From an uncultured Pedosphaera sp. (lineage in GTDB: Bacteria; Verrucomicrobiota; Verrucomicrobiia; Limisphaerales; AAA164-E04): a stretch of 64,000 bases of DNA. This document shows, in pieces, positions 32,920 through 36,425 of this stretch. Below the pieces are notes generated by a model, which was given only the letters and a program-made list of their open reading frames with translations, had not been told where the DNA came from and made no database searches. The translations under genes and the position numbers were made by a program. Where the stretch lies: positions 1,234,567 to 1,298,566 of the forward strand of contig OZ243981.1 in assembly GCA_965214825.1 (NCBI GenBank), in the 5' to 3' direction. Positions within the stretch are counted from its first letter, which is position 1, and every line of letters starts with the position of its first letter.

Positions 32920-33284
32920 GTTAAATCTGTTGGTGTGAATTTCGGTGAATTTGACTAGTGTTTGCAAAGATGTTGAAATTTTTTTATTAGCAACCCTCCG
33001 TCCCTGATGTCCACACCGACTTGTTGCCTTCCCCTTGAGTTGGAATGTCCAACGATGATTTTGTCGGTTGCGCCGAGTTTTTCCCGAACGAAGCATCATT
33101 TTTGAGCGCGGTAGCAATGAGGACGGCGGTGTCTTGGTTGACAGTGCCGTGTTCAAGTGGAGGCGCGGTCGAGATGGATGAGACTGGCAAGTCCTCCATT
33201 CCTTGAGGAATTTCAAGGCGCTGCGGGAAAGAGTTGGTGCCGGGCCTCTCCCTGGAGAGCGCGACTCGCAAGCTACACTATAAA

Positions 33285-33409
33285 CTGCCGGACTGCCGGA
33301 CTGCCGGACTGCCGGACTGCCGGACTGCCGGACTGCCGGACTGCCGGACTGCCGGACTGCCGGACTGCCGGACTGCCGGACTGCCGGACTGCCGGACTGC
33401 CGGACTGCC
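33285..33409. repeat. Perfect octanucleotide tandem repeat (CTGCCGGA) x15 plus a partial unit
   Basis: Counted directly: 15 identical 8-bp units over 33285-33404, then ctgcc. Confidence 0.95.
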
Positions 33410-33501
33410 CTCTCTTCAGTATGGCAGAATGCTCGGAGATTGTCGCCATCAGATTTCGGGGAAGCCTGCCCCGTAGATGCCGTCTTGTCAAGGGCGAAAT
33501 T

Positions 33502-33639
33502 CGCGATAAGGAGTTATAGGCTTAACGGGAGTGCCTGCACCTCCACCGCTCTACGAGCCCTACCGCCCCCACCGCTCTACGAGTGTCTGCCCCACCTTTA
33601 TGCTGGACAAGGTGAAAAGCCCGTAACTCCTTATTGCGG
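33502..33639. repeat. Full-length MITE-like element upstream of aroE
   Basis: Termini cgcgataaggagttataggctt / aagcccgtaactccttattgcgg form an inverted repeat. The interior holds two ccaccgctctacgag units and gtgtctgccccacc. Confidence 0.7.
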
Positions 33640-34687: not shown

Positions 34688-34847
34688 CGCGATAAATATT
34701 TAGGGGCTTAACAGGGTGGCGCAGGCTGAAAGCTGGCGGGCAGACAAGAAGTCGGTTGCGCGGTTGTCGGTTCCCCACCGACCCAACCGCTTTCCGAGTG
34801 CCTGTGCCACCTTGCCTGCTAAGCAAGCCCGCAACCGTTTATTGCGG
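34688..34847. repeat. Full-length MITE-like element with ~40-bp imperfect terminal inverted repeats
   Basis: Left end: cgcgataaatatttaggggcttaacagggtggcgcaggc. Right end: gcctgtgccaccttgcctgctaagcaagcccgcaaccgtttattgcgg. The core gggcagacaagaagtcggtt...gtcggttccccaccgacccaaccgctttccgagt is shared with the other copies. Confidence 0.7.
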
Positions 34848-35073: not shown

Positions 35074-35135
35074 CGGGGGCGATGTTTTTCCCCAGTGGTT
35101 CTCTTAAGGCTTGGGCGGCGGTTGCCGGGTTGAAT

Positions 35136-35198
35136 GTGGCGCAGGCACTCGAAGAGCGGTTGGGGCGGTGGGGAACCGACAACCAACTTCAGTCTGTG
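35136..35198. repeat. Core-module copy of the repeat family, just downstream of pyrD
   Basis: gtggcgcaggcactcgaagagcggttggggcggtggggaaccgac is the reverse complement of the 34.7-kb core. Confidence 0.65.
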
Positions 35199-35204
35199 CA
35201 TGGC

Positions 35205-36425
35205 TCAGCTTGTTCGGAAAGGGAGGTTGGAGCCGACGGCTTGTTGCCATTTTTGAATGTTGTGGCGGCGCAGTTGGTTGATGAGTCCGCGCACGATTTC
35301 CGAGACCAGGCTGGGGCCTTGGAAGACGAGGCCGGAGTAGAGTTGGCAGAGGTGAGCGCCGGCCGCGATTTTTTCCCAGGCGCTTTCGGCGTCGTGAATG
35401 CCGCCGACGCCGATGATGGTTAGGGAACCGCGCGTTTGGCTGGCGATGCGGCGGATGATTTCCGTGCTGCGTTGGCGAAGCGGTTGCCCGCTGAGACCGC
35501 CAGGAATAGGGTAGGACAATGTGGGGCAGACACTCGAAGAGTGGTTAGGGCGGAGGGACTCGAAGAGCGGTTGGGGCGGTGGGGAACCGACATCCAACTT
35601 TTGTCTGCCTTGGCGCAGGCTTCTAGCCGGCGCCACCTTGCTTGTGTTTGTGGCGACGATGCCGGCGAGTCTGAACGCCAGCGCTAACTCGACAATGTCC
35701 TCAATGGCGGTGTCCGCGAGGTCGGGAGATATTTTAATCAAGAGCGGTTTCTCTGGTGAAGCTGGGCGGGACTTGCTGTTGCTCGCTGCCAAACGCCGGT
35801 TGGTATCGGTCAAGGTTTTCAGGAGGGAGGTCAAGGCCGGCTTTTCTTGGAGCGTCCGCAAGCCCGGTGTGTTGGGCGAGCTGATGTTGACGACGAAGAA
35901 ATCTGCCAGAGACCAAAGTTTTCCGAAGGAGTAGGCGAAGTCCGCGCCAGCTTCTTCGAGGGGTGTCTGTTTGGATTTGCCGAGGTTGATTGCTAGGGGA
36001 AATTGGCGGTTGTGACGGGATTTTTGGAGGGCGGCGGCCAAAGCGTCGGCGCCGCAGTTGTTGAAGCCCATCCGGTTGATGAGGGCGTCGGTTTCAGGAA
36101 TTCGGAACAGGCGGGGTTTTGGGTTGCCGGGTTGTGGATGGCGAGTGATGCCACCGATTTCGCAAAAGCCGAAGCCTAGCGCTTGCCATGATGGGAGGGC
36201 GACGCCGTTCTTGTCCATCCCGGCCGCGAGGCCGATGGGGTTGGGAAAACGAATGCCGAAGCGGGCGACCGGGAGGGCATCTGCAGCGAAGAACTCGTGT
36301 GCTAGGTCGCACAAAACCGGCGAACGTCCGAGTGCTGCCAAACTGTTGAGCGTCCATGAATGGGCTTTTTCGGGATCGCATCGAAACAGGATGGGTCGCA
36401 CCCACCGTCTATAGAATGAACTCAT
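35205..36425 (-). CDS. pyrD: Dihydroorotate dehydrogenase (quinone), class 2, carrying a repeat-derived in-frame insertion
   Basis: 'FPNPIGLAAGMDKNG', 'GFCEIGGIT', 'ATNTS' and 'GGLSGQPLRQRSTEIIRRI'. At 406 aa it is about 70 aa longer than the E. coli enzyme as I recall it. Confidence 0.85.
   Translation of the reverse strand: MSSFYRRWVRPILFRCDPEKAHSWTLNSLAALGRSPVLCDLAHEFFAADALPVARFGIRFPNPIGLAAGMDKNGVALPSWQALGFGFCEIGGITRHPQPGNPKPRLFRIPETDALINRMGFNNCGADALAAALQKSRHNRQFPLAINLGKSKQTPLEEAGADFAYSFGKLWSLADFFVVNISSPNTPGLRTLQEKPALTSLLKTLTDTNRRLAASNSKSRPASPEKPLLIKISPDLADTAIEDIVELALAFRLAGIVATNTSKVAPARSLRQGRQKLDVGSPPPQPLFESLRPNHSSSVCPTLSYPIPGGLSGQPLRQRSTEIIRRIASQTRGSLTIIGVGGIHDAESAWEKIAAGAHLCQLYSGLVFQGPSLVSEIVRGLINQLRRHNIQKWQQAVGSNLPFRTS
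35521..35637. repeat. Repeat-family copy lying in frame inside the pyrD coding sequence (117 bp = 39 codons)
   Basis: gtggggcagacactcgaagagtggttagggcggagggactcgaagagcggttggggcggtggggaaccgacatccaacttttgtctgcc...ggcgccacc. It is translated as VAPARSLRQGRQKLDVGSPPPQPLFESLRPNHSSSVCPT between 'TNTSK' and 'LSYPIPGGLSG'. Confidence 0.7.

Follow-up and report, generated by a model that had tools for sequence, protein, structure and literature searches.

Can a copy of a dispersed repeat lie in frame inside pyrD, the gene for dihydroorotate dehydrogenase (DHODH), and leave a working enzyme? The question is raised by a 64,000-nt stretch of DNA (the window), in which a pyrD open reading frame (ORF) of 406 codons runs without interruption through a copy of a repeat. 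An earlier note on this DNA had placed the copy at 35521-35637 (117 bp), with the reading frame kept over all 406 codons and the repeat-encoded peptide lying between the motifs ATNTS and GGLSG. The frame and the position of the peptide are both seen in the ORF. The segment does belong to the repeat family, but its extent had been underestimated: it is a complete unit of 122 nt, at 35518-35639 (Table 1).

The product of the gene is a class 2 DHODH. It matches the Pfam DHO_dh family (8.6e-80) in two stretches, and it scores above the equivalog cut-offs of NCBIfam NF003652 (421 bits; cut-off 267) and TIGR01036 (372 bits; cut-off 200), with both matches broken in two around residues 263-307. The class 2 catalytic serine motif is kept, as NISSPNTPGLR aligned to the E. 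coli PyrD motif. In an AlphaFold model, the N-terminal extension that forms the quinone site is present as helices at residues 2-15, 18-34 and 36-46, ahead of the barrel. ATNTS occupies residues 258-262 and GGLSG residues 309-313. The insert therefore occupies codons of a variable loop, with NT[TS], which binds orotate, on one side and GGLSG, which binds the FMN phosphate, on the other.

Table 1. Coordinates in the window of pyrD, the repeat copy within it and the neighbouring copies.
Feature	Position	Strand	Details
pyrD, quinone-dependent (class 2) dihydroorotate dehydrogenase	35205..36425	-	406 aa, insert = residues 263-302; ORF, Pfam, NCBIfam, AlphaFold, Foldseek
Complete repeat unit in pyrD, 122 nt	35518..35639	+	Read on the minus strand as KVAPARSLRQGRQKLDVGSPPPQPLFESLRPNHSSSVCPT; nhmmer E 1.1e-37
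Left terminal inverted repeat	35518..35531	+	AATGTGGGGCAGAC; family consensus AAGGTGGCGCAGAC
Two 26-nt internal units in tandem	35532..35583	+	23/26 bases identical
CCGACA heptamer module and TGTCTGCC	35584..35609	+	TGTCTGCC pairs with GGCAGACA at 35525-35532 (inner hairpin)
Second hairpin and right terminal inverted repeat	35610..35639	+	Hairpin GCAGGCTTCTAGCCGGC; terminal repeat GCCGGCGCCACCTT
Second copy, one 26-nt unit	35133..35200	+	Starts ~5 nt past the pyrD stop codon; direct orientation to the pyrD copy
Third complete unit, 101 nt	34713..34813	-	pyrD-aroE spacer; within a larger element with outer inverted repeats
Fourth copy, more diverged, two 26-nt units	33540..33602	-	Upstream of aroE

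The repeat family is large. Across the genome, a single 3.83-Mb contig, nhmmer found 144 matches at 137 loci, and with blastn also used we put the family at about 100-140 copies. At least 30 bits were scored by 99 of the 137 loci and at least 60 bits by 70 of them; the pyrD copy scored 129.7 bits (E 1.1e-37). In the window, a 31-mer from the pyrD segment occurs three times, versus no occurrences expected in shuffled sequences. Complete units are 86-137 nt long, are bounded by AAGGTGGCGCAGAC and GTCTGCGCCACCTT ends, and are modular. The left end, AAGGTGG(C/G)GCAG(A/G)C, is followed by a 26-nt unit, ACTCGAAGAGCGGTTAGGGCGGAGGG, present 1-5 times per copy (1, 2, 3 or 5 times outside pyrD), and then by 0-5 CCGACA(A/T) heptamers. 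Next come TGTCTGCC, the partner of the left end in a hairpin, then a second, small hairpin, GCAGGCTGGAAGCCTGC, and finally the right end, the inverse of the left end. In the pyrD copy, the ends are 14-nt imperfect terminal inverted repeats, AATGTGGGGCAGAC ... GCCGGCGCCACCTT. The nearest other copy is 95.8% identical to it over 72 nt, which equals the family median, and the pyrD copy is therefore not an old, decayed relic.

Could the segment be a native loop of PyrD, specific to this lineage, that merely resembles the repeat? Loop length does vary among homologues, and the corresponding loop of E. coli PyrD contains RSLVQG, which is similar to the element-encoded RSLRQG. Against this, the segment is a whole unit with an inverted repeat at either end, has all the family modules in order, and is 89-96% identical to intergenic copies. 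It is absent from all orthologues, even those that are 70% identical, and relatives of verrucomicrobial type do not have RSLxQG at the site. We regard the likeness of RSLRQG to RSLVQG as a coincidence, since near relatives are without the motif and the DNA is clearly that of the element. Judged from these comparisons, a native origin of the loop is effectively refuted already, and we give it next to no credence.

How much of the loop is foreign can be read from MAFFT alignments of 19 PyrD orthologues from relatives (48-70% identity) and 41 homologues from a large protein collection (52-71%), a comparison that the earlier note had named as the check on a native loop. The element segment is absent from all of the ~60 aligned homologues (48-71% identity), and in 37 relatives the match to PyrD is in two pieces that skip residues ~268-300. 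The usual loop, NTT-x-x-R-P-(8-9 residues)-Y-x-E-T-GGLSG, has 18 residues. The loop has 5-19 residues in the 38 homologues with an identifiable motif pair, versus 46 here; the range within the genus is 10-19, with 10 in one congener. The NT[TS]-GGLSG loop is thus naturally tolerant of length change. E. coli PyrD has 15 residues between NTT and GGLSG (249-263, chain 1f76), in agreement with the ~15 given in the earlier note. Forty element-coded residues, basic and rich in proline and serine, stand where relatives have the 12 central residues of the 18-residue loop, and the net gain is thus 28 residues, not 39 as first supposed. The element is indeed foreign to the loop, but the change was not a pure insertion, as part of the native loop was replaced. 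At the DNA level, native sequence extends as far as ...ACA AGC and begins again with (TT)G TCC TAC, and all of the DNA in between is element. Either the event removed ~36-38 nt, or the ancestral loop was already short. No PyrD more than 71% identical was found among 5.8 billion proteins, nor a strain-level empty site; hence, there is no near relative with which to date or polarise the insertion. Immediately after the insert, the native codons at 35502-35510 encode P-I-P, where at least 90% of homologues have x-E-T before GGLSG, and this may be a relaxed or compensatory change at the loop anchor.

None of 10 congeneric genomes has real copies of the family. Matches of 26-35 nt in three congeners (G006, G009 and G001) proved on inspection to be chance-like stretches and not elements. 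Scans of 185,579 species genomes and of JGI metagenome contigs gave no exact match to a degenerate 28-nt core of the repeat, and the element matched no Rfam family. This seems to be a repeat family that has not been described before and that is confined to one species.

With four copies in 2.1 kb, the region around pyrD is dense in repeats, and a repeat copy might have been misplaced into the gene during assembly. We consider such an artefact very improbable. The genome is assembled as a single contig, both junctions run straight into native pyrD codons with the frame exact, and the pyrD copy is identical to no other copy (at best 95.8% over 72 nt).

How is the element read within the gene? 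Four of its six frames are free of stop codons. In the phase used, the family has an A/G polymorphism that can give TAA, and the pyrD copy has G. Given its direction and phase within the gene, the element has no stop codon and would therefore be translated. A long tryptic peptide from the insert region is LDVGSPPPQPLFESLRPNHSSSVCPTLSYPIPGGLSGQPLR. In the mRNA sense, the element has a predicted fold of -43 kcal/mol (z -3.15), which might hinder translation; a simple scan of the element found no terminator-like site. Two other explanations for an in-frame segment were rejected: an intein, because the segment has only 40 aa and no splice-junction residues, and translational bypass, because the segment has no stop codon to be bypassed.

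Does the altered gene still encode an active enzyme? The earlier note had proposed structural modelling of the loop. The AlphaFold model, built with 42 sequences, has a mean pLDDT of 89 and a pTM of 0.88, and forms a class 2 DHODH barrel. Confidence is low only at residues ~263-307 (pLDDT 44-69, with two short tentative helices), and every 10-residue block outside 261-310 has a pLDDT of 77-98. Foldseek aligned the model to class 2 DHODHs of E. coli (1f76, TM 0.92), M. tuberculosis and human with target-normalised TM scores of 0.90-0.92. Hence, the barrel fold is predicted to be intact despite the insert, which is modelled as a low-confidence loop. Sequence conservation outside the loop points the same way. 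All 70 invariant alignment columns are kept, as are 127 of the 133 columns that are at least 90% conserved; six departures compare with a mean of 4.2 (sd 2.9, maximum 11) in the other sequences. Three of the departures are conservative (V93I, G145A and V181I) and the other three (T262S, R265A and E307I) border the insert.

These data bear on a rival explanation, that PyrD has been inactivated. On this explanation, the gene is a young pseudogene that is in frame by chance, and pyrimidines come from the surroundings or from a distant paralogue. The position of the insert lends it some weight: the loop is on the catalytic face of the barrel, where it directly follows the Asn and Thr that bind orotate and precedes the Gly residues that bind FMN, and is thus between substrate- and cofactor-binding motifs. 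The loop has also lost two anchor residues, R265 and E307, both of which are at least 90% conserved. Moreover, judged by its similarity to other copies, the element in pyrD seems no more ancient than the typical family member; the insertion may thus be recent, and an intact gene elsewhere along its length is then weaker evidence of function. Set against these points are the predicted fold, the conserved columns, and homologues with loops of 5-6 aa, which show that the middle of the PyrD loop is dispensable.

The pyrimidine pathway also argues against inactivation. For the rest of the de novo route, the genome has intact pyrB, pyrC and pyrF genes and two identical copies of pyrE, whereas the salvage genes upp and udk were not found. 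The earlier note had raised the possibility of a second pyrD; no second true pyrD was found in the genome. The only other gene with a DHO_dh fold encodes a protein of 351 aa with a class-1-like NLSCPN motif (G000:C1:3346889-3347941; L003:1399-2454, +). It scores 60 bits versus the DHODH equivalog cut-off of 269, and its resemblance to class 1B enzymes is only distant (30 bits to PDB entries). Judging from its sequence, this paralogue could in principle be a source of DHODH activity. However, it also occurs in 9 of 10 congeners, beside a normal PyrD, and so does not represent a replacement special to this genome. Taking both sides together, we consider inactivation of PyrD unlikely.

We propose instead that this is a tolerated in-frame insertion of selfish repeat DNA in a functional pyrD, similar to the palindromic elements of Rickettsia, and we consider this explanation likely. 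The PyrD protein is probably made and active, and the enlarged loop is probably solvent-exposed. A non-autonomous, hairpin-forming element of 122 nt, which would have expanded to ~100-140 copies in this lineage only, presumably entered pyrD at the codons of the NT[TS]-GGLSG loop. In the native loop of 18 residues, the central 12 would have given way to the 40 that the element encodes, while the TIM barrel, the quinone-site helices and the catalytic serine motif (NISSPNTPG) stayed as they were. In all likelihood the protein tolerates the longer loop as a disordered segment, and orotate would still be made. Since four of the six frames are open, a landing that is both open and in phase is not improbable, and selection on an indispensable gene would be expected to remove other landings.

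How the element moved may be by transposition or by local recombination. A control-validated search for RAYT (PF01797, Y1 transposase) found no match in the genome, although control genomes responded. Nor did the genome yield an insertion sequence with matching ends that could be the parent: where inverted end pairs are spaced 0.5-3.5 kb apart, the DNA between them holds ordinary genes and no ORF resembling a transposase. There is no target-site duplication at 10 complete units, the pyrD copy included. The copy just past the pyrD stop codon provides a possible local source. A perfect 31-mer is common to 35151-35181 in that copy and 35562-35592 in the pyrD copy, and the two copies are 92% identical overall, over 59 nt. 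The shared 31-mer and the direct orientation hint at a local hop or gene conversion.

The earlier note had left it open whether the element was tolerated or exapted. Toleration is likely, judging from fold and conservation; for exaptation we found no support at all. A further reading is that the element-coded loop is not neutral, being either a co-opted basic, proline-rich lid or part of a pyrD switch prone to slippage or deletion, and we regard this as quite improbable. A lid could change regulation or partner binding near the orotate/FMN site. A switch, built from the two 26-nt units and the 31-nt repeat, could let cells lose and regain pyrimidine prototrophy, or differ in it within the population. 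Gain or loss of one 26-nt unit at 35532-35583 would shift the pyrD frame, and recombination across the 31-nt direct repeat would cost the gene its last ~100 codons.

Is pyrD the only gene affected? We searched the genome for frames that run stop-to-stop across a copy with at least 50 aa on either side, and obtained 20 ORF-copy pairs, representing 18 distinct frames. Fifteen frames besides pyrD had no Pfam match and run through neighbouring repeat modules; we rejected them as genes with internal copies because they are non-coding frames built of repeat modules. A leucine-rich-repeat gene and a sulfatase gene were also rejected as carriers, since in both the copy is upstream of the likely start. 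Among the recognisable genes of the genome, pyrD alone has an internal copy.

An in-frame palindromic repeat in a gene is already known from Rickettsia and Wolbachia. Rickettsia palindromic elements (RPEs) were reportedly described by Ogata et al. in 2000 and 2002. RPEs and Wolbachia palindromic elements are ~100-150 bp long, palindromic and non-autonomous, and are found in frame in genes for housekeeping enzymes. The pyrD insert is like them in being a palindromic element of this size class in frame (122 nt, z -3.15), and in being read through as an extra variable-loop peptide with the rest of the fold unchanged. There are also clear differences. The host has a free-living-sized, 3.8-Mb genome of PVC/Verrucomicrobia type. 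No sequence relation to these families emerged from searches of Rfam, of congeneric and other species genomes and of metagenome contigs. The pyrD element is built of modules, its 26-nt and 7-nt units varying in number among copies, and its insertion also replaced 12 native residues. One recognisable gene is affected among ~100-140 copies, in contrast to dozens in R. conorii.

In Rickettsia, RPEs occur in dozens of genes (PMC10969869). In-frame fusions of miniature inverted-repeat elements (MITEs) have been called “not unusual”, with RPEs as the extreme case, and examples include intragenic ERIC, Nezha and Anabaena MITEs, and Correia elements (PMC10969869). The present family is like MITEs in its terminal inverted repeats, its length of ~90-140 bp, the absence of transposase coding, its many dispersed copies and the occasional insertion into a gene with the frame left open. 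It is unlike MITEs in that there is no target-site duplication at 10 complete units, and no insertion sequence with the same ends in the genome.

Other families share parts of the architecture. BOX elements of Streptococcus pneumoniae (boxA-boxB(n)-boxC) likewise have fixed ends around a variable-number unit (here the 26-nt unit, 1-5, and the 7-nt unit, 0-5), are mostly intergenic and form hairpins. However, sequence and host are unrelated, and the analogy is one of architecture only. REP and REPIN sequences, which RAYT transposases mobilise, are also short, GC-rich palindromic repeats that often lie just past stop codons, as does the copy at 35133-35200, but this genome has no RAYT, and the ends of the element lack a GTAG or CGTC head. 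In how it works, the pyrD element resembles an RPE, a Wolbachia element or a MITE fused in frame, and by sequence and host it belongs to none of these groups.

What is the significance of the insert? It extends an RPE-type phenomenon to a free-living-sized genome of PVC/Verrucomicrobia type, and does so in an essential enzyme. The gene also offers a natural test case for how much extra sequence the NTT-GGLSG loop of a class 2 DHODH can carry. DHODH is a drug-target enzyme family. Existing knowledge of how such insertions arise or persist is unchanged by the pyrD case.

Several further observations concern the surroundings of the repeat. The core often sits within a larger unit whose outer inverted repeats are CGCGATAA...GGGCTTAAC / AAGCCC...TTATTGCG, as at 33502-33639 and 34688-34847, and there are other recurrent flanking modules, e.g. 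CGCAGAGTTCTTCCGCCTGAAACCGGCGAAGTAAAGGTG. The pyrD copy consists of the core only, without the outer inverted repeats. In the spacer upstream of aroE, ~16 tandem copies of an octamer, ACTGCCGG, at 33284-33417, adjoin the diverged repeat copy. Beyond the window, large genes for leucine-rich-repeat proteins have family copies on their flanks or immediately before them (G000:C1:94415-97767 and 1231845-1236193). Also outside the window are two pyrE-like matches with identical scores, 71.1 bits each (G000:C1:571361-571771 and 2183074-2183484). Repeat copies lie within ~100 nt of either match (571809-571924 and 2183562-2183700), and the pair looks like a segmental duplication bordered by repeats.
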